DNA from: Dehalococcoidia bacterium
GTDB lineage: Bacteria; Chloroflexota; Dehalococcoidia; Bin125
Length of the DNA: 64,000 nucleotides
Direction of reading: 5' to 3'
Assembly: GCA_965203165.1 (NCBI GenBank)
Contig: OZ241849.1
Coordinates: 1,281,267 to 1,345,266, forward strand
Both the position numbers and the translations under genes were made by a program. Shown here in pieces: positions 1,560-39,722 of this stretch (positions are counted from its first letter, which is position 1; every line of letters begins with the position of its first letter). The notes beneath the pieces are model-generated. The model made no database searches and was not told the DNA's origin. It saw only the letters and a program-made list of their open reading frames with translations.

Positions 1560-2834
1560 ATGAGCATGCACGCGCCGCAGGAGGCTGGGCCGCTGCCGCC
1601 TGCGGCTGGTGGGGCGCTGCCGCCTGGGGCGCTGCCGCCTGCGCCTGGTGGAGCGCTGCCGCCGGAGGCTGGTACTCCGCTGCGGTATCGGCGGGGGGTT
1701 CGCGACTTTGTTGTTCAGGCGATCTATGTGGGGGTCACCGCGCTGGTGATCGCCTATGTCGTGCTGCAGCTGGGGGGGCGGGAGTACGGCTTCGGCTTCC
1801 TTAATCAGCCGGCGGCCTTTGATGTCGGCAACCAGTGGCTGACCAGCATTGACGGCACGACCAACTCGCGCTTCACGATGTACCTCGTGGGCGTCTGGTC
1901 GACGATTCGCGTGGTTGTGCTGGCGATCGCGCTTTCGACGGTGCTGGGGATTCTGATCGGCGTGGCGCGGCTCTCCTCCAACTGGCTCGTCTCGCGGTTG
2001 GCGATGCTGTTCGTGGAGACTTTCCGCAACGCGCCGCTGTTCGTGCAGATTGTGCTCTGGTACGCGGTCGTGCTGTTCGGGCTGCCGACGATTCAGAACG
2101 TGATCAACATCGGCGATTTCGCCTACCTCTCGAACCGGGGGATCGCGATTCCCTGGCCTGTGCCCGACGGCGGCTGGTGGGGCGGGCCGGACTGGCTGGT
2201 GGGCGTCTGGGTGGCGGCGCTGATCCTGGCGGGCGCGGCGGCCTGGCGGCTGCGCCGCGGGCGGCAGATTTTGGAGCGCGAGACGGGCGAGATTCGGCAC
2301 CCCAACCGCTGGGCGCTGGGGCTGTTCGCCGGGCTGGCGCTGCTCAGCTTTCTGCTGCTGGGCGGGCCGGTCGCGATCGACCGCCCGATCGTCGAGGGCA
2401 CCAGCTACGCCGAGGGGATGGGCATTTTCCCGGAGTTCGCCGCGCTGCTGCTGGGCCTGACGATCTACACCGCCGCGTTCGTCGCGGAGATCGTGCGCGG
2501 CAGCATTCAGGCGCTGCCGCGCGGGCAGAGCGAAGCGGCCAGCGCGATCGGGCTCAACGCCTACCAGCGGCTGACGCTGGTCGTCCTGCCGCAGGCGCTG
2601 CGGCAGATGATCCCCTCGATGACCAATCAGTACCTCAACGTGAGCAAGAATTCGAGCCTCGCTTCGGGCGTCTCCTATTTCGACCTGTTCTTCGTGGCCA
2701 ACATCATTCAGAACAAGATCGGCCACGCGGTCGAGGTCTTTCTGCTGATTATCGTGACCTACATGCTGATGTCGCTGTTGATCTCGGTGGTGATGAACTA
2801 CATCAACCGCCGGGTGACGCTGCACACGGTCTAG
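1560..2834 (+). CDS. Polar/general amino-acid ABC transporter permease (AapQ/BztB-like)
   Basis: Multi-TM protein with the conserved ABC permease EAA-region ...SIQALPRGQSEAASAIGLN.... The N-terminus is proline-rich low complexity. Followed by a second permease and an ATPase. Confidence 0.8.
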   Translation: MSMHAPQEAGPLPPAAGGALPPGALPPAPGGALPPEAGTPLRYRRGVRDFVVQAIYVGVTALVIAYVVLQLGGREYGFGFLNQPAAFDVGNQWLTSIDGTTNSRFTMYLVGVWSTIRVVVLAIALSTVLGILIGVARLSSNWLVSRLAMLFVETFRNAPLFVQIVLWYAVVLFGLPTIQNVINIGDFAYLSNRGIAIPWPVPDGGWWGGPDWLVGVWVAALILAGAAAWRLRRGRQILERETGEIRHPNRWALGLFAGLALLSFLLLGGPVAIDRPIVEGTSYAEGMGIFPEFAALLLGLTIYTAAFVAEIVRGSIQALPRGQSEAASAIGLNAYQRLTLVVLPQALRQMIPSMTNQYLNVSKNSSLASGVSYFDLFFVANIIQNKIGHAVEVFLLIIVTYMLMSLLISVVMNYINRRVTLHTV

Positions 2835-2847
2835 AGGGGAGCGCGCG

Positions 2848-4119
2848 ATGGCCGAGCAGCCGCCGATTCCGCCCGCGCCCGACGCGCCGCCGGTCGGCGT
2901 CCATGCGCCGCGCAAGATCGTGCTGCCGCCGCACCGCGCGCGGGCGCACCGCCCGCTCTCGGAGCGCGCGCGCGAATGGGCGCGGCGCAACCTGTTCGCC
3001 TCGCCCGGGCAGATTGTGATGACGCTGCTCAGCCTGGCGCTGGTCGGCCTGATCGTCGCCGGGCTGGTCTGGTTCGTCTTTTTCGAGGCCAACTGGCGGG
3101 TGATCACCGTCAACCGCTGGCTGCTCTTCGCGGGGGGCTTCCCGCAGGAGGAGTCGTGGCGCTTGTGGCTGAGCGTGGCGGTGGTGTTCCCGCTGATCGG
3201 CGGCGCGTACGGGATGTGGGCCAGCCTGGGGCGGCGCGACCTGCTCTTCATCGCGCTCTCGGCCGCCTTCCTGTTCTTCCTGATGGCGCACGGCGGGGCG
3301 GGGCCCACTTCGTCGATCTGGTTCACCGCCTCGCTGACGCTCTTCTTCCTGGGCTACCTCGTCTGCCGCCGGATTCCGCGCGAGACGGGTCCGCGCCGCG
3401 ATCTGGCGGTGCGCTCGCTGTCGGCGCTGATTGTGCTGGCGCTGCCGATCGTGCTGGCCGTGCTGATGGCCGGCGGCGGGGCTCGCGCGAGCGAGTTCGG
3501 CGGCTTCATGCTCAACCTGATCCTCGCCCCGGTCGGCATTGTCGGGGGGCTGCTGCTGGCGGTGCCGCTGGCGCTAGGGCGGGCCTCCTCGCTGCGCGCG
3601 ATTTCCTGGACCTGCACCGCCTACATCGAGGTGATTCGCGGCGCGCCGCTGATCGGCTGGCTGTTCGTCGCGCTGTTCATCCTCGAAGACATCGTCTCGG
3701 GGCCGCTGATCGTGCGTACGATGATCGTGCTGGCCGTCTTCACCGCGGCCTACGTGGCGGAGTACATCCGCGGCGGGTTGCAGGCGCTGCCCAAGGGGCA
3801 GGCCGAGGCGGCGCAGGCGGTAGGACTGAGCCGCTGGCGCACGCTGCAGACGGTCGTGCTGCCGCAGGCGCTGCGGGTCTCGATTCCGCCGATCGTCGGG
3901 CAGGCGATCGGGCTGTGGAAGGACACGGCGCTGATTTCGATCATCCTGCCGCTGCGCGAGTTGGTGGGCAACTCGCGCGCGGCGATCGCCCAGTCGGAGT
4001 TCATTCCGGACCGGATCGAGGTCTACGCCTTCGCCGCGATCATGTTCTGGATCGTCGCGTTCATGATGTCGCGCATCTCGCAGCGTCTGGAGCGCTCGCT
4101 CGGCCTGGGCGAGCGTTAG
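2848..4119 (+). CDS. Amino-acid ABC transporter permease (AapM/BztC-like)
   Basis: Multi-TM protein; EAA motif ...GGLQALPKGQAEAAQAVGLS...; adjacent to the first permease. Confidence 0.8.
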   Translation: MAEQPPIPPAPDAPPVGVHAPRKIVLPPHRARAHRPLSERAREWARRNLFASPGQIVMTLLSLALVGLIVAGLVWFVFFEANWRVITVNRWLLFAGGFPQEESWRLWLSVAVVFPLIGGAYGMWASLGRRDLLFIALSAAFLFFLMAHGGAGPTSSIWFTASLTLFFLGYLVCRRIPRETGPRRDLAVRSLSALIVLALPIVLAVLMAGGGARASEFGGFMLNLILAPVGIVGGLLLAVPLALGRASSLRAISWTCTAYIEVIRGAPLIGWLFVALFILEDIVSGPLIVRTMIVLAVFTAAYVAEYIRGGLQALPKGQAEAAQAVGLSRWRTLQTVVLPQALRVSIPPIVGQAIGLWKDTALISIILPLRELVGNSRAAIAQSEFIPDRIEVYAFAAIMFWIVAFMMSRISQRLERSLGLGER

Positions 4120-8589: not shown

Positions 8590-9625
8590 CTGCTGGGGTA
8601 TGGGGGGAGGAAGCGTGAGCGTGCGGGGTTTGGGCGGCGGCAAGCGGGCTTGGCGCTCATCACGGCGAGATACCCGCGGCGAGCGCGGGTATGACGGACC
8701 TATTTTTGCGCGGGTATGGCGGGCCTAACTCTGCGTGGGTATGGCGGAGTGGGTGCGCGGGTGGCCGGAGGAAGCGTGAGCGTGCGGGGTTTGGGCGGCG
8801 GCAAACGGGCTTGGCGCCCATCACGGCGAGATACCCGCGGCAAGCGCGGGTATGACGGACCTAATTTTGCGCGGGTATGGCGGGAGAGGGGCGCGCGGGT
8901 GCGGGGTTTGGGCGGCGGCAAGCGGGCTTGGCGCCCATCACGGCGAGATACCCGCGGCGAGCGCGGGTATGACCCTATTTTTGCGCGGGTATGACGGGCC
9001 GGACTCTGCGCGGGTATGGCGGGAGAGGGGCGCGCGGGTGGCTGGAGGAAGCGTGCGCGTGCGGGGTTTGGGCGGCGGCAAGCGGGCTTGGTGCTCATCA
9101 CGGCGAGATACCCGCGGCGAGCGCGGGTATGACGGACCTCTTTTGCGCGGGTATGGCGGACCTGACTCTGCGCGGGTATGACGGGCCTGATTCTGCGCGG
9201 GTATGGCGGACCTAACTCTGCGCGGGTATGGCGGGAGAGGGGCGCGCGGGGGCTGGAGGAAGTGTGCGCGTGCGGGGTTTGGGCGGCGGCAAGCGGGCTT
9301 GGCGCTCATCACGGCGAGATACCCGCGGCGAGCGCGGGTATGACGGACCTAATTTTGCGCGGGTATGACGGACCTAATTTTGCGCGGGTATGACGGACCT
9401 AATTTTGCGCGGGTATGACGGACCTAATTTTGCGCGGGTATGGCGGGCCTGATTCTGCGTGGGTATGGCGGACCTGACTCTGCGTGGGTATGGCGGGCCT
9501 AACTCTGCGCGGGTATGGCGGGCCTGATTCTGCGTGGGTATGGCGGGCCTGACTCTGCGCGGGTGTGGCGGGCCTGACTCTGCGCAGGTGTGGCGGAGGT
9601 TGCGGTGTGGGGGCGGGGGGCTTAG
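8590..9625. repeat. Repeat cluster B: 5 core palindromes plus nested 25-27 bp iterated half-sites
   Basis: Cores at about 8668, 8836, 8951, 9109 and 9313. GGGTATGACGGACCTAATTTTGCGC x4 at 9340-9440, then about 27-bp GGGTATGGCGGGCCTGAYTCTGCGY units to about 9600. Confidence 0.85.
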
Positions 9626-11170: not shown

Positions 11171-11745
11171 GTGTGGCGGAGGTGGTTGAGCGGGGGGGGG
11201 TGTAGGCGGGGCTTGGTGCGCACCGCGGCGAGATACCCGCGGCGAGCGCGGGTATGACGGATCTTTTTGCGCGGGTGTGACGGAGGTGGTTGGGCGCGGG
11301 GGGTGGGGCGGAGGGCGCGCGGGGGGGGGTGTGGGCGGGGCTTGGTGCGCACCGCGGCGAGATACCCGCGGCAAGCGCGGGTATGACGGATCTACTCGCG
11401 CGGGTGTAGCGGAGGTGGTTGGGCGCGGGGGTGTGACGGAGGGCGCGGGGGTGTGGGGGGGTGTGGGCGGGGCTTGGTGCGCACCGCGGCGAGATACCCG
11501 CGGCAAGCGCGGGTATGACGGATCTACTCGCGCGGGTGTGGCGGAGGTGGTTGGGCGCGGGGGGTGGGGGTGTGGGCGGGGCTTGGTGCGCACCGCGGCG
11601 AGATACCCGCGGCAAGCGCGGGTATGACGGATCTACTCGCGCGGGTATGACGGATCTTTGGGCGCGGGTATGGCGGAGGTGGGGCGCGGGGGTGGCGGGT
11701 CTGTTTCGCGCGGGGGTGGCGGAGGTGGTTGGGCGCAGGGCGTAG
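11171..11745. repeat. Repeat cluster C: 4 units of about 110-130 bp with the same core
   Basis: GGGGCTTGGTGCGCACCGCGGCGAGATACCCGCGGCRAGCGCGGGTATGACGGATCT at about 11227, 11353, 11484 and 11595. Confidence 0.85.
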
Positions 11746-11799
11746 CATTTGTGGGGAGCGGCGCGTGGATGGATTGGCGCGAACGCGAGGAGGGGGAAC

Positions 11800-13347
11800 A
11801 TGACTACGCAGGGGTTGCCTACGCAGGGGTTGCCTACGCGGGGGCTGACTACGCTGGTGGAGACTTCGCTGGGGGGGTTGCGGGGGGTTGAGGATGAGGA
11901 GGTGGTCGTGTTTCGGGGGGTGCCGTTTGCGAAAGCGCCGGTGGGGGAGCTGCGCTGGCGGCAGCCGGAGCCGCTTGATCCGTGGAGCGGCGTGCGCGAC
12001 GCGAGCGAGTTTGGGGCGTCGGCGATTCAGCGGCCGCTGCCGGGCGATCTGGGAGATCTGATTGGCATCCCGCTGCAGGAGATCAGCGAGGACTGCCTCT
12101 ATCTCAATGTCTGGACGCCTGCGCTGGATGGCGCGAAGCGGCCAGTGATGGTCTGGATTCACGGCGGCGGCAACACGGTGGGCTCGGGGACGCAGCCGCG
12201 GATCGACGGGCGGCGGTTGGCGCTGGCGGGCGATGTGGTGGTGGTCACGATCAACTATCGGCTGGGCGCGTTCGGCTTTCTGCACGCGCCGGTGCTGGGC
12301 GCGTACGGCAACGAGGGGCTGCTTGACCAGGCGGCGGCGCTCTTCTGGGTGCGGCGCGAGATCGCGGCGTTCGGCGGCGACCCGCAGAATGTGACCGTGT
12401 TCGGGCAGTCGGCGGGCGGCTTCGACATTGCGCATCTGATGGCGATGCCCTCGGCGGCCGGGGCGTTCGACAAGGCGGTTCCGATGAGCGGCTCGCTGAT
12501 CCGCACGATCGGCAAGGATGAGGCGCGGGAGACCACCGAGAAGTTTTTGATTCGGTTCCGCGCGGTCGACGATCCCGAGCGGCTGCGCGATGTGCCCGCG
12601 GAGGAGATTCTGGAGTACCAGCTGGAGCTGACCGGCGGCGGGCTGGGCGGGGTGCGCTTCGGACCGACGGCCGACGGCTACGCGCTGGGGCTCGATGCGG
12701 AGGCGCGGATCGGCGCGGGCATTCAGACGCGCGGGATGCCGCTGCTGATCGGCCACACGCGCGACGAGTTCGCGATCTTCACCGAGACCAATGAGGCGTT
12801 CGCCGAGTTCGGCGAGGACGATCTGTACGGCGCGGCGGCGCTGCAGTTCGGCGTGCGCACCGCGGAAGGGCTTGACTGCTATCGCACGGCGCGCGCCGAG
12901 CGGGGCGAGGCGACGGATCCGCGCAGCCTCTACACGGCGCTGATGACCGACGCGATGTTCCGCATCCCCGCGGTGGCGACGGCCGAGGCGCAGGCGCGGC
13001 ATACGCCGGATGTCTGGTTTTACCGCTTCGATCATCCCTCGCCGGCCTACGACGGGCGGCTGGGCGCGTGCCACTCGCTGGACATTCCGTTCATCTGGGG
13101 CACCTACGAGGCGGAGAACATGCGGCGCTTCTGCGGCGATGATGCGCGGCTGGCCGAGCTGAGCGGGATGATGATGGCGACCTGGCTGAGCTTCGCGAAG
13201 AGCGGCGACCCGAACAACGAGGCGCTGCCGGAGTGGCCGCGCTACGACGCCGAGAGCCGCGCGGTGATGTCGCTGGGGCTGGAGCCGCGCGTGGAGCGCG
13301 ACCCGGGGGCGGCGGAGCGGCGTTTCTGGCAGTCGTTGGAGCTGTAG
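11800..13347 (+). CDS. Carboxylesterase type B (para-nitrobenzyl esterase-like)
   Basis: EDCLYLNVWTP, VMVWIHGGG, and the nucleophile elbow GQSAGG. Confidence 0.8.
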   Translation: MTTQGLPTQGLPTRGLTTLVETSLGGLRGVEDEEVVVFRGVPFAKAPVGELRWRQPEPLDPWSGVRDASEFGASAIQRPLPGDLGDLIGIPLQEISEDCLYLNVWTPALDGAKRPVMVWIHGGGNTVGSGTQPRIDGRRLALAGDVVVVTINYRLGAFGFLHAPVLGAYGNEGLLDQAAALFWVRREIAAFGGDPQNVTVFGQSAGGFDIAHLMAMPSAAGAFDKAVPMSGSLIRTIGKDEARETTEKFLIRFRAVDDPERLRDVPAEEILEYQLELTGGGLGGVRFGPTADGYALGLDAEARIGAGIQTRGMPLLIGHTRDEFAIFTETNEAFAEFGEDDLYGAAALQFGVRTAEGLDCYRTARAERGEATDPRSLYTALMTDAMFRIPAVATAEAQARHTPDVWFYRFDHPSPAYDGRLGACHSLDIPFIWGTYEAENMRRFCGDDARLAELSGMMMATWLSFAKSGDPNNEALPEWPRYDAESRAVMSLGLEPRVERDPGAAERRFWQSLEL

Positions 13348-14644: not shown

Positions 14645-15574
14645 TCATGTACGCCGCCCTCTCCGTCGAGCGCGGGTGGTTGCGCGGCGGCGACCTTCGA
14701 GCAGCTGTCGCTGTAGCTCGCGCTGTGGCGCGGCGTTGTCCAAGACCAGGATTGGGCTCGTCAGATCGACGCCGAGATCGACTGCGAGATCGGCCGCTAC
14801 GTCGTGCAGAATCTCGACGCCGATGCTCTGCCGACCCATACGCTGAGCTACGCGGAGCGTTGTCCCGGAGCCTACGAACGGATCGAGTACGACATCACCC
14901 TCGTCGGTGAACAGCTTGATGAACCACTCCGGCAGCCATTCGGGATACGCCGCTGAGTGACCGGTGTTGTGCGCAACCGGCGATCCGTAGAGGACATTGT
15001 TCGGCAGAACGGTGTCTTTGTCAGTCCAATACGCGATCTTCCGTCCGACGCCGCTGCCGGTGGCGCTGTTGTGGCGTGTGAGGTCTGCGTCGCCCAGCTT
15101 CTTCAGCCGAGCCTCCGTCCAGTCGCCGATTGGCACTCGCACCGCGTCCTGGTTCATTTTGAAGTTGCGCTCTTTGGTGAAATGCAGGCAGCGCTCCCAA
15201 GCGTCGCGGAACCGGTTTCGCCAGTAGCCGGGCGCGCTGGTCGTCTTGTGCCAAACGTACTCCTCGACCCACCTGAATTCGCACTCGCTGCGCAGCGCTT
15301 GGATCAGCTCGAGCACGTAGGTGTGGCGCTCTCCGTCTACGCACTTTTCTTTGATGTTGAGTACGAACGAGCCTGTCGGCGCGAGGACGCGGTAAAACTC
15401 GTGCGCCCGCGGAATGAACCACTCGACGTAGTCGTCCGGCCGAATGCCGCCGTAGGTTCGCTTGCGGGCGTCCGCGTAGGGTGGCGACGTGACGATCAGG
15501 TCGACGCTGTCGCTCGGAACGTTGGTGAGCGCGTCAAGGCAGTCGCCCGCGAATAGCGTGATCGAGTCCGGCAT
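14645..15574 (-). CDS. DNA methyltransferase, beta-class N4-cytosine or N6-adenine
   Basis: Motif IV DLIVTSPPY precedes motif I DPFVGSGTT (IV...I order, beta group). Sits in a lower-GC segment adjacent to a putative endonuclease. Confidence 0.8.
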   Translation of the reverse strand: MPDSITLFAGDCLDALTNVPSDSVDLIVTSPPYADARKRTYGGIRPDDYVEWFIPRAHEFYRVLAPTGSFVLNIKEKCVDGERHTYVLELIQALRSECEFRWVEEYVWHKTTSAPGYWRNRFRDAWERCLHFTKERNFKMNQDAVRVPIGDWTEARLKKLGDADLTRHNSATGSGVGRKIAYWTDKDTVLPNNVLYGSPVAHNTGHSAAYPEWLPEWFIKLFTDEGDVVLDPFVGSGTTLRVAQRMGRQSIGVEILHDVAADLAVDLGVDLTSPILVLDNAAPQRELQRQLLEGRRRATTRARRRGRRT

Positions 15575-15585
15575 CGCGATCCTGC

Positions 15586-16410
15586 CTATCGCCCCAGATG
15601 CACTTGCTGAAAGAGATCGCGGCAGAACTGCACTGCTTCGGTGTCGACTTTGTCGGACATGTCCGGCGACAGGTGGTCTTGCATTCGATTTGCGAGCTGC
15701 GCAAAGACCAGATCGAGGGCGTCGTCCACACCGGAAGCGATGGCGTAGAACGTTCGCCCGTCAACGCGCTCGATCCTCTCGCCGACAGCGGCGGGCTGCT
15801 GTCCTGGGCGGCGCGGCAAGATCGTGACCAGATAGCCACGGCCGCTCGACCCCCATCGTTTGGCGCGCAAGAACTGAGAGATGTTGTCGAGCACCTGCTT
15901 CGTGGTGTCGGCATTCATCGTGTTGTGCTTGTTCTTGACCTCCGCCGCGATCCGGGCGTCGTCGTTGAACAGATCGACGAGGCCGTCCTGCTCGGTCCAG
16001 CCCGGCATCGCACCGAGCACGTTCTGGTGAAAGCCGCCGATTGCACTCGCGATTGCCTGCGCCAGCGACCTTGAGCCGTCCAGACGATTGAGATCGTCCA
16101 CACCGCCGCCAAGAACGCAAGCCTGCGCGAGCAGCGCGAAGGGGTCGCGCACATTCTTCTCAAGTCGGGCGGGGATCTCGCGGTCGGCCTCGCCAATTCG
16201 GGAGATCAGCGTTCGGATGGCTGCGTCAAAGTCGGCGTCGCTGATGAACGGGAGCTGTCCGCTTCCACCTGGATCTCGCGGGGGGGGGGGGGGGGGGATA
16301 CGACGAGCGGACGAGCTCACGGCGGACTCCTCGATCGGGCCGCGTACCATACACAGCGGGCCGCCAGGGGCCAAGGCCCGACGGCGGGCCGGGAGAGAAC
16401 GCAGCCGCAC
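15586..16410 (-). CDS. Putative type II restriction endonuclease (PD-(D/E)xK-like); N-terminus contains an 18-nt poly-C/G tract
   Basis: DLFNDDARIAAEVKNKHNTMN fits D...(D/E)xK. Co-oriented directly upstream of the methyltransferase. Family assignment (possibly Eco47II-like) is uncertain. Confidence 0.45.
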   Translation of the reverse strand: MRLRSLPARRRALAPGGPLCMVRGPIEESAVSSSARRIPPPPPPRDPGGSGQLPFISDADFDAAIRTLISRIGEADREIPARLEKNVRDPFALLAQACVLGGGVDDLNRLDGSRSLAQAIASAIGGFHQNVLGAMPGWTEQDGLVDLFNDDARIAAEVKNKHNTMNADTTKQVLDNISQFLRAKRWGSSGRGYLVTILPRRPGQQPAAVGERIERVDGRTFYAIASGVDDALDLVFAQLANRMQDHLSPDMSDKVDTEAVQFCRDLFQQVHLGR

Positions 16411-16442
16411 TCTGTCGGTGCGAGCTAGAGACGAGCGCGGAC

Positions 16443-17228
16443 ATGCCCAACGACTGGCACGAGCTTTTGGATGACCTTGCGGCGGAGCAGCGGTATCTGG
16501 ATGATGCGCTGGCTGCGACTGAGGATGCGGTGTGGGAGCGCGCGACGCCCTGCGAGGGGTGGCTGGTGCGGGATGTGATCGCGCATCTGGCGGAGGTTGA
16601 CGACCATGCGGCGATCGTGGCTTCGGGCGCGCCGCGCTATCCGGACGGGGGCGGGCGCTCGGCGGACGGGCTGCGCTCGCAGGGGCAGGATGAAGCGCGG
16701 CAGATGACGCGGGCGCAGCTGGTCGATTGGTGGCGCGGCGCGCGGGGGCGTCTGGAGGCGGCGCTGCGTCCGCTCGACGCGAAGCATCGGCTGCCGTGGG
16801 CGGGCCCGCCGATGAGCGCGCGCTCGTTCGCCACGGCGCGGCTGATGGAGTGCTGGAGCCACGGGCTGGACGCGCTGGACGGGGCGCAAATCGCGGCGAT
16901 GGACAGCGACCGGCTGCGGCACATCGCGCATCTGGGCTGCATCACGCGGGCGTTCGCCTACCAGACGCGGGGGCTGGAGCCGAACACGGAGCCGCTGCGG
17001 GTCGAGCTGGCGCTGCCCTCGGGCGCGGCGTGGGCGAGCGGTCCGGAGGATGCGGCCAACCGAATCAGCGGCGCGGCGGGCGGTTTCTGCCGCGTCGTGA
17101 CGCAGCGGATTCACTACCGCGATACGGACCTGCAATGGCAGGGCGAGGCGGCGGAGGAGTTTCTGCAGGTGGCACAGGCGTTCGCGGGCCCGCCCGGGCC
17201 GGGGCGGGCGGAGCGGTCGCGGGGGTGA
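16443..17228 (+). CDS. DinB-like / mycothiol maleylpyruvate isomerase N-terminal domain protein (TIGR03083-like)
   Basis: ATPCEGWLVRDVIAHLAEVDDH is the conserved N-terminal motif of this family. Confidence 0.55.
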   Translation: MPNDWHELLDDLAAEQRYLDDALAATEDAVWERATPCEGWLVRDVIAHLAEVDDHAAIVASGAPRYPDGGGRSADGLRSQGQDEARQMTRAQLVDWWRGARGRLEAALRPLDAKHRLPWAGPPMSARSFATARLMECWSHGLDALDGAQIAAMDSDRLRHIAHLGCITRAFAYQTRGLEPNTEPLRVELALPSGAAWASGPEDAANRISGAAGGFCRVVTQRIHYRDTDLQWQGEAAEEFLQVAQAFAGPPGPGRAERSRG

Positions 17229-17234
17229 GGGCAC

Positions 17235-17860
17235 TTGGCGCCCTCGCGCACGCCCCAGATCCGTCATACCCGCGCTCGCCGCGGGTATCTCGCCGTGTTC
17301 GGCACTAGGCCATGTTCTCGCCCCCTTTCCGTCATTCCCTGCGCAGGCAGGGTTGAGAGGCGAGGACGGGACTTGGGTGCAGCGCAGCGAGATACCCGCG
17401 GCGAGCGCGGGTATGACGGAAGGGGCGCGGGTATGACAGAAGGGGGCGTAAGGGAATGACGGGCTTTGCGCGGGCTGCGGGCGTGTGTGTTTTCCGCTCT
17501 CTTCCTCCCTTCGGAGCGTTAGGGGGTGCGAGAGGGCTTTGCGCTGTGCTCGGCGAGATACCCGCGGCGAGCGCGGGTATGACGGAGGAGGCGGCGCGGG
17601 TATGACGGAAGAGGGGGGGCAGGTATGACGATATGGGCCGCAGGGGAATGACGGGGCTTTGCGCGGAGCTGCGGGCGTGTGTGTTTTCCGCTCTCTTCCT
17701 CCCTTCGGAGCGTTAGGGGCGCGAGAGGGCTTTGTGCTGTGCTCGGCGAGATACCCGCGGCGAGCGCGGGTATGACGGATCTTTTTGCGCGGGTATGACG
17801 GAAGAGGGGGCGCGGGTATGACGGAGGAGGGGCGCGGGTATGATGGACCTCGTGTGAACA
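17235..17860. repeat. Repeat cluster D: one inverted core then three forward cores with about 180-bp period
   Basis: Inverted core GTCATACCCGCGCTCGCCGCGGGTATCTCGCC at about 17262; forward cores at about 17390, 17565 and 17747. A conserved TGTGTGTTTTCCGCTCTCTTCCTCCCTTCGGAGCGTTAGGGG appears twice between cores. Confidence 0.85.
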
Positions 17861-38711: not shown

Positions 38712-39722
38712 ATGGACGACCATTCCGCCCCCCCCAGCGAGGCCGCGACCGACGACGCCTACGCGCTCGTCTTCCCCGGCCAGGGCTCGCAGTCCGTCGG
38801 CATGGCCGGCAAGGTGCTCGAGGTCCACCCGGCCGCCGAGCACTGGTTCGAGCGCGCCAATCAGCTGCTCGATTACGACCTGCTGGGCCTGATCGAGCGC
38901 GGCCCGGTGGAAGACCTCAACGAGACCGAGCATTCGCAGCCCGCGATCTTCGTGGCCAGCGTCGCTTGGCTCGAAGCGCTGCGAGCCACCTGGCACGCCG
39001 CCGGGCGAAAACTCAGCCCGACCGTCGTCTCCGGGCACAGCATGGGGCAGATCACCGCGATGTTCTCGGCCGGCTCGATCAACTTCGACGACGCGCTGCG
39101 GCTGGTCAAAAGCCGCGGCGAGCTGATGCGCGACGCCAATCTGCGCCGCCCCGGCGGGATGGCCTCGATCATCGGCCTGCGCGACCGCGTGCTCCGCTCG
39201 CTGGTCGGCGAGGCCGCCAACGACGGCACGATCGTGGTCGCCAACGACAACTGCCCCGGGCAGACCGTGGTCTCGGGCGACGACGCGCCGCTGCGCCGCC
39301 TGATGCGGCTGGCCGAGGACCACGGGGCGCGGCGGGTCGTGCGGCTGCCGATCTCGATCGCCTCGCATTCCCCGCTGATGGCCGACGCGCAGACGCAGTT
39401 CCGCGACGCGGTGCGCTCGGTCAAGTGGAGCGAGCCGGTCGTGCCGGTCGTGAGCAACATCAGCGGCGGCCTGATGCACACCAGCGACCAACTGGTCCAC
39501 GAGCTCTCCGACGCGCTCACCGCGCCGGTGCAGTGGCAGACGGCGGTCAAGACGATGGCCGCGCAGGGCTCGACGCTGTTCGTCGAAGCGGGGCCGGGCG
39601 ATGTGCTCTCGAAGCTCGTGCGGCGCATCTCGCGCACCTCCTGGACATTCCCGCTCTCCGACGACGACGCCGGACTGGGCGTGCGCGACTACCCGGACAA
39701 GAGCGACGGGATCCCCAAGTGA
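38712..39722 (+). CDS. fabD: Malonyl-CoA:ACP transacylase
   Basis: FPGQGSQSVGM and GHSMGQ active-site motifs. Confidence 0.85.
   Translation: MDDHSAPPSEAATDDAYALVFPGQGSQSVGMAGKVLEVHPAAEHWFERANQLLDYDLLGLIERGPVEDLNETEHSQPAIFVASVAWLEALRATWHAAGRKLSPTVVSGHSMGQITAMFSAGSINFDDALRLVKSRGELMRDANLRRPGGMASIIGLRDRVLRSLVGEAANDGTIVVANDNCPGQTVVSGDDAPLRRLMRLAEDHGARRVVRLPISIASHSPLMADAQTQFRDAVRSVKWSEPVVPVVSNISGGLMHTSDQLVHELSDALTAPVQWQTAVKTMAAQGSTLFVEAGPGDVLSKLVRRISRTSWTFPLSDDDAGLGVRDYPDKSDGIPK

Follow-up and report, generated by a model that had tools for sequence, protein, structure and literature searches.

A poly-C tract of variable length at the 5′ end of a restriction endonuclease gene as a probable phase-variation switch in sponge-associated Dehalococcoidia

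A pure C18 tract lies near the 5′ end of a restriction endonuclease gene in the window (the whole 64 kb stretch of DNA that was analysed) and, judged from its sequence context, rather likely serves as a phase-variable on/off switch of that gene. This interpretation had been put forward from the letters of the window by themselves (the sequence-only reading) and gained support from the comparison with relatives, in which frame-breaking differences in tract length occur beside an intact enzyme body of 220 codons under selection. It is carried by the anatomy of the locus, the missing start codon downstream of the tract, the length polymorphism and the purifying selection on the gene body, all of which were directly observed.

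The gene pair and its homopolymer tract

The open reading frame at 15586-16410 (minus strand) was assigned to the Eco47II family by Pfam (PF09553 RE_Eco47II, E = 9e-28; residues 53-247 of 274, profile positions 1-201 of 202) and to REase_II by PADLOC (E = 4e-21). Read from a GTG that is linked to a ribosome-binding site, the gene covers 15586-16320 (minus strand) and would encode 244 aa, composed of an 8-residue leader, poly-proline, an 8-residue linker and the Eco47II-family domain; this product reads MSSSARRIPPPPPPRDPGGSGQ-LPFISD..., with the predicted N-terminal peptide MSSSARRIPPPPPPR. An AlphaFold model of the endonuclease (31 homologues in the alignment) reached a mean pLDDT of 91.9, with low confidence only at residues 1-20 (leader and poly-proline), which are disordered. 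Sequence search returned no PDB homologue of the endonuclease, and relatives emerged by fold comparison only, the best PDB folds being EcoO109I (TM 0.61, probability 1.0), followed by AvaII. Across the 31 homologues E127, K129 and the block N130-K131-H132-N133-T134 were invariant and D116 nearly so; the enzyme combines a conserved E-x-K catalytic block with a nuclease fold, as in the PD-(D/E)XK type. Fold and Pfam family (RE_Eco47II) are common to the window enzyme, EcoO109I (RG/GNCCY), AvaII (G/GWCC) and Eco47II (GGNCC), while identity to the solved structures (EcoO109I, AvaII) is only 10-14%. The matches of the modelled fold to EcoO109I and AvaII would fit the GGNCC specificity of Eco47II. 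To our knowledge, none of these three enzymes carries an N-terminal poly-proline leader.

The DNA methyltransferase gene (14645-15574, minus strand; 309 aa, with an SPPY motif) begins 11 nt past the stop codon of the endonuclease gene and has an SD-like site of its own. It was recognised by Pfam (PF01555 N6_N4_Mtase, E = 7e-42) and by PADLOC (MTase_II), and its best solved relative was M.PvuII, an N4-cytosine enzyme (E = 2.4e-26), so that by homology the window methyltransferase is probably N4-cytosine specific. The junction of the two genes, including the SD-like site of the methyltransferase, was conserved in 12 loci, and every contig holding the whole methyltransferase gene had it intact, at 309-311 aa. 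No homopolymer run of 7 or more was found in the methyltransferase reading frame of the window, and no controller gene was found at the restriction-modification locus. With a recognised Type II endonuclease family and a separate, adjacent methyltransferase, the pair is classed, by sequence, as a Type II restriction-modification system.

The divergent neighbour of the endonuclease gene encodes a TIGR03084/MDMPI-type (mycothiol-type) protein, and the order MDMPI-type gene, endonuclease, methyltransferase, luciferase-like gene is kept throughout the relatives. The pair (14645-16320) has a G+C content of 63-64% and a GC3 of 0.76-0.78, compared with a window average of 68% and a GC3 of 0.87 in the neighbour gene; low G+C, yet the same syntenic position in all relatives, suggests an old acquisition. 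A variable spot lies by the MDMPI-type gene (17274-17787 in the window, 1068-2140 in contig L003, 858-1921 in L004): the window has about 510 bp there that are absent from L001, and L003, L004 and L007 carry a PIN_10 and DUF433 (toxin-antitoxin-like) pair.

The tract itself was seen as G18 on the plus strand at 16280-16297 and C18 on the coding minus strand. The sequence-only reading had correctly described an 18-nt poly-G/C run in the 5′ coding part and had placed it at 16281-16298, one position too far. On the coding strand the bases ATC CCC CCC CCC CCC CCC CCG specify isoleucine and PPPPPP, the prolines being codons 9-14 from the GTG; orthologous tracts of C8 to C33 occur in 13 other loci. 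Under an iid model with the base composition of the window, 0.00025 G runs of 18 or more are expected in 64 kb. Run lengths in the window become about 4-fold fewer per extra base and otherwise end at 9, a C14 run at 670-683 excepted; the C18 tract is beyond chance. It begins 23 nt past a conserved AGGAG-N6-GTG (22-23 nt across loci) and lies 10 codons ahead of the conserved N-terminus of the Eco47II-family endonuclease. The locus has three features of a contingency locus: an uninterrupted repeat of hypermutable length (C18 here, pure C8 to C33 in the 13 others), located between start codon and functional domain, with non-3n length polymorphism beside a conserved gene body.

Translation start and tract length among relatives

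Distant homologues (about 50% identity) begin M-x-x-L-x-F-I-S-D right at the domain, and the tract-free orthologue (L010/L011) likewise starts there, with GTG GCG CAG CTC TCT TTC ATC. In the tract-bearing clade the position of this ancestral start codon is occupied by GGA, GGC or GGG, and the first in-frame ATG, GTG or TTG past the tract follows 41-46 codons downstream. The earlier claim that no alternative start exists downstream of the tract was borne out in all 14 loci; initiation at that distant codon would delete two confidently modelled helices (residues 28-55). With the ancestral start lost and the 41-46 codons past the tract free of in-frame starts, translation must begin upstream and cross the tract.

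Upstream, an SD-like AGGAG (16327-16331, minus strand) stands 6 nt ahead of GTG 16320-16318 (minus strand), and AGGAG-6-GTG was present in 12 of the 13 loci with upstream sequence; gene calls starting at this GTG occur in every subclade. By this conservation the GTG is probably the start codon. The sequence-only reading had begun the protein at the ATG of MVRGP, about 20 codons before the tract, and this start was given up in favour of the GTG linked to the ribosome-binding site, which puts the tract 8 codons past the start. The ATG (16350) lies within a conserved TATGGT hexamer, the conserved SD sequence precedes the GTG instead, and the ATG frame is closed by TGA 21 nt before the tract in L003, L004/L007 and L012. 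In L008 the GTG is missing and only the ATG is in frame. The start of the longest reading frame, a GTG at 16410, was rejected as well, being located upstream of the promoter-like element and near the start of the divergent gene.

This promoter-like element consists of the conserved hexamers TTGGCC (−35-like; 16369-16374, minus strand) and TATGGT (−10-like; 16346-16351, minus strand, containing the MVRGP ATG at 16350-16348). TTGGCC-17-TATGGT was identical in 13 of 13 loci with upstream sequence. It agrees with the consensus at 8 of 12 positions, with the threshold of the scan tool set at 9, and the tool reported no sigma-70 promoter in 15500-16600; it is the conservation of the element by which it is probably a promoter. 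A 21-nt element, GCTGTGTATGGTACGCGGCCC (16337-16357, minus strand), spans the −10 region together with the site at which transcription probably begins and is invariant in all tract-bearing loci, although the coding DNA of these lineages differs by up to 18%. This exceeds the need of a −10 hexamer, and the element may be an operator or part of overlapping divergent promoters. A GGCCGC...GCGGCC palindrome at the −10 region was discarded as a structured element, its fold energy being no better than that of shuffled sequence (z 0.70).

Homologues 75-99% identical were collected from two complete Dehalococcoidia MAG chromosomes (OZ241913.1 and OZ251457.1; GTDB representatives), further long contigs and many short-read scaffolds. 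Contigs with names ending in _x_c or _x_l are presumably metaMDBG long-read assemblies. The JGI metagenome_contigs gave no match by peptide patterns or an invariant 20-mer, and protein P0011 was not located on any contig. The short-read scaffolds, assembled with metaSPAdes, bear the study code PANK22-1, which denotes tissue of Caribbean Agelas sponges (Pankey et al. 2022, PRJNA555077; sample table, PMC13083261). As the scaffolds come from Agelas tissue samples, the lineage is sponge-associated; the genome, earlier described as environmental-type, belongs to host-associated rather than free-living Dehalococcoidia.

The tract was uninterrupted and at the same position in all 14 assemblies. Within the lineage of the window its length was C13 (L014), C15 (L001), C16 (L005), C17 (L015), C18 (window), C19 (L013, and L002 at a contig end) and C33 (L016); in other lineages C8 (L012), C11 (L004), C12 (L007 and L009), C14 (L008) and C15 (L003) were found. 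A pure C tract is therefore located at the same place in every close relative, with a length that differs nearly everywhere; this comparison, proposed by the sequence-only reading, had the outcome expected of phase variation. A tract-free orthologue in close relatives, named there as evidence against a switch, was not encountered: the one orthologue without a tract, L010 (75% aa identity), is an outgroup that differs in its 5′ region and starts canonically. Most of the compared lineages are about 5-18% divergent in DNA, so that these lengths document evolutionary change rather than rapid switching. Consensus sequences at G/C homopolymers of 11-33 nt are unreliable with Illumina and with long reads, and any single length may be off by one base or more. 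In L016, an Illumina scaffold from Agelas dispar, positions 2501-3250 hold the C33 tract (11 prolines, in frame with the GTG), an exceptional length among homopolymers in bacterial coding sequence and one whose exact value is uncertain.

Read from the GTG, the full enzyme would be made in 3 of 12 loci (window, L001 and L016) and peptides of 27-37 aa in the other 9; this share is about the third that an unconstrained length would give. L003, L007, L009 and L012 would need exactly one base more to be in the GTG frame, and in L004, L005, L013 and L014 the body is in a frame closed by TGA. Four lineages have the body in the third, start-poor frame and not in that of the GTG, which reads as an OFF state without proving it. 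Each subclade of the protein collection contained GTG-started full-length forms (P0043, P0044, P0047, P0058, P0060, P0066, P0068), and the collection also included at least 21 shortened gene calls of 188 aa.

The enzyme body of 220 codons was without indels in all 10 loci measured, with dN/dS of 0.05-0.28, out-of-frame loci included. An intact body under purifying selection means that the out-of-frame loci are not decaying pseudogenes; by these ratios, selection maintains the gene body while tract length wanders freely. As a counterpoint, a share of only 3 ON loci in 12 is uncomfortably low for a gene under purifying selection.

One comparison came from a single sequencing run (SRR18249264): L004 (metaSPAdes, ERZ23495663) and L007 (Logan) differ in 4,571 bp solely by C11 vs C12. 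This could reflect mixed reads and equally sequencing or PCR slippage, and the two were not counted as independent evidence, since the sample table shows one read set. The tract-free pair L010/L011, also from one read set, was identical.

The proposed switch and its alternatives

In the proposed mechanism, transcription would begin just downstream of TTGGCC-17-TATGGT, the presumed promoter, and translation at the GTG of the conserved AGGAG-N6-GTG, the use of this GTG being likewise presumed. With the ancestral domain-adjacent start lost in the clade, ribosomes could reach the enzyme only by translating the tract into poly-proline. Tract length would be altered by slipped-strand mispairing at replication, mechanism and rate both being presumed. 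In the lineage of the window a length of 0 mod 3 (15, 18, 33) would give the full enzyme of 243-249 aa, and any other length would end translation after 27-37 residues. The methyltransferase, with no repeat and with a ribosome-binding site of its own, would presumably still be expressed independently of the endonuclease gene, although an early abort in the latter could lower it through polarity. Restricting cells would then coexist in the population with non-restricting, still methylated ones, the two presumably interconverting in both directions.

The main rival is a fixed in-frame poly-proline leader, in which real changes would occur in steps of 3 and odd lengths would be sizing errors. Such a leader might be a flexible N-terminal tail, or an EF-P-dependent throttle that keeps the endonuclease below the methyltransferase. 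The in-frame members of the window's lineage do differ by multiples of 3 (15, 18, 33), the low-confidence, disordered residues 1-20 of the model fit a dispensable tail, the purifying selection on the body is as expected for a constantly used gene, and no sequencing platform is free of errors at long G/C homopolymers. Nevertheless, 9 of 12 assemblies from three pipelines would have to be wrong here only, with neither the 220-codon body nor the methyltransferase showing any other indel, and the protein collection contains at least 21 shortened gene calls. The leader peptide is, moreover, not conserved, non-3n indels occur between start and tract, and a run of C11-C33 is physically unstable during replication whatever its role in the protein. 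A fixed leader is for these reasons regarded as unlikely.

Less likely than the mis-sized leader are two further explanations. Slippage of RNA polymerase on the long run, or of tRNA-Pro on CCC-C while poly-proline is slowly made, could provide some in-frame product at any DNA length; expression would then be set mainly at the level of RNA or ribosome, with the tract as a leaky attenuator instead of a binary switch in the DNA. Homopolymer runs and CCC-C/poly-proline sites are known to be prone to slippage, and L003, L007, L009 and L012, one base short of the GTG frame, nonetheless have an intact and selected body. Transcriptional slippage is, however, best documented for A/T runs, L004, L005, L013 and L014 are in the TGA-closed frame, and 3 ON and 9 OFF loci are already expected from unconstrained DNA length, with no need of recoding; this explanation is considered unlikely. 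Alternatively, the tract could belong to the 5′ untranslated region or promoter, its length tuning transcription or mRNA structure, with translation from a non-canonical downstream start. A poorly conserved leader peptide, frame changes between lineages and a near-cognate ATC at the isoleucine of FISD would suit this arrangement. That ATC, however, lies inside the conserved domain, two residues past the conserved L-x-F, no canonical start follows for at least 41 codons, and both the conserved SD-GTG upstream and the GTG-read full-length forms in every subclade stand against it, which makes an untranslated tract very improbable.

An assembly or sequencing artefact (two-colour poly-G or a chimeric join), which the sequence-only reading had kept as its alternative and to which the break of contig L002 at the tract with junk sequence upstream could point, is negligible as an explanation for the existence of the tract, found with conserved flanks and synteny in 14 assemblies from separate samples and at least three pipelines, with the exact length per assembly still uncertain.

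Known homopolymer loci, a second tract and implications

Homopolymer contingency loci are textbook knowledge for a few host-adapted pathogens. Homopolymer-controlled restriction-modification genes have been described in H. pylori, C. jejuni, Neisseria and Mycoplasma (PMC3936762, PMC4889913), among them the Type IIG genes JHP1272/HP1353-54 of Helicobacter pylori with poly-C tracts (PMC3936762) and cj0031 of Campylobacter jejuni with a poly-G tract (PMC4889913). In common with the window locus, the H. pylori and C. jejuni genes have a pure G/C run inside the reading frame, truncation by a change of 1 or 2 nt, lengths that vary by strain and a host-associated bearer. Their tract is located in a fused restriction and modification protein, so that methylation switches too, whereas here it would affect a stand-alone Type IIP-like endonuclease beside a separate methyltransferase free of a tract. 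Tracts of 8-14 in H. pylori and C. jejuni contrast with up to C33 in the predicted switch here, and the host here, an uncultured high-GC Chloroflexota sponge symbiont, is unlike either.

Surveys of simple-sequence repeats also cover the Type III mod and the Type I hsdM/hsdS genes (PMC5909438, PMC7383803). Phasevarions share with the window locus such repeats in restriction-modification loci, which there give ON/OFF subpopulations; their hallmark, a phase-variable methyltransferase with a repeat in mod, hsdM or hsdS and a switching methylome, is absent here, the tract being in the endonuclease gene, and it is defence and DNA uptake, not epigenetic regulation, that would be affected. By analogy, the locus would work like the known homopolymer-controlled restriction-modification genes; with its repeat in the endonuclease and not in the methyltransferase gene, it is no phasevarion.

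In Listeria monocytogenes inlA carries a 5′ poly(A) tract, and a general role in gene inactivation has been proposed for homopolymers at 5′ gene ends (Orsi et al. 2010, PMC2831843). As in inlA, the tract here lies a few codons past the start, where a frameshift would inactivate the gene efficiently and reversibly; the frameshift peptide has 8 aa for InlA and would have 27-37 aa here. That study dealt with poly(A)/poly(T) tracts in genomes of low GC, about 7 nt long at most, in contrast to poly(C/G) of 8-33 nt at 68% GC. A full-text literature search aimed at Chloroflexi found no paper on a contingency locus in that group. New here are the host (an uncultured Chloroflexota sponge symbiont of 68% GC), the stand-alone Type IIP-like endonuclease gene, placed first in an operon that lacks a controller protein, the apparent recruitment of a leader in place of the ancestral start, and the tracts of up to C33.

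The second tract named by the sequence-only reading, C14 on the plus strand at 670-683 (G14 on the coding minus strand), was confirmed and, like C18, lies just past a start codon, so that the two long tracts of the 64 kb are both in this position, C18 in a gene of defence and C14 in a gene for a secreted protein. The latter, an RCC1-repeat gene (minus strand, 1 to about 745), runs off the start of the window. Its G14 splits the signal peptide: a charged n-region (...QRARRAAAALTRS) precedes the tract, the hydrophobic core with an AQA site (HKLLPIALAIAALLLAALTLAQA) comes after it, and the RCC1 repeats follow. As assembled, the tract is out of frame and the body is in a frame devoid of starts, which a length of G13 or G16 would connect to the start-bearing one. 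In the orthologue P0073 (84% identity) the glycine run is in frame. The gene calls P0072 and P0076 are truncated and begin inside the signal peptide, and P0091 (57% identity) has GGGG at the tract site.

Other repeats were noted in the window. A third homopolymer just past a start codon, C8 at 38728-38735, forms codons 6-8 of the reading frame 38712-39722 (plus strand), an Acyl_transf_1 (FabD-like), housekeeping-type gene. REP/MITE-like intergenic repeats with a hairpin core (gagatacccgcggcaagcgcgggtatgacgg) and G-rich arms are located at about 800-1500, 8600-9400, 11200-11900 and 17613 of the window and at 1863-2010 of L002; this family contains the G9 runs 11192-11200 and 11321-11329 and several G7 runs.

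A wider hypothesis is held only tentatively: Dehalococcoidia symbionts of Agelas might keep a set of unusually long poly-G/C contingency loci that stochastically switch phage defence and secreted, eukaryotic-like RCC1-repeat proteins thought to interact with the host, and the tract might also have been a safety catch during establishment of the R-first, controller-less operon. Were such a repertoire true, bet-hedging in the style of pathogens would extend to a mutualistic, high-GC, non-proteobacterial symbiont.

For annotation, it matters that gene callers split the endonuclease gene into at least three product classes (full-length, fortuitously extended and 188-aa truncated), so that such loci are systematically misread in metagenomes, and that consensus MAG sequences hide heterogeneity of the tract. 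If the phase-variable switch is real, populations of these symbionts would be heterogeneous in restriction and in at least one secreted protein of eukaryotic-like type, which would bear on their response to the many viruses of sponge tissue, on DNA exchange and on their interaction with host cells.
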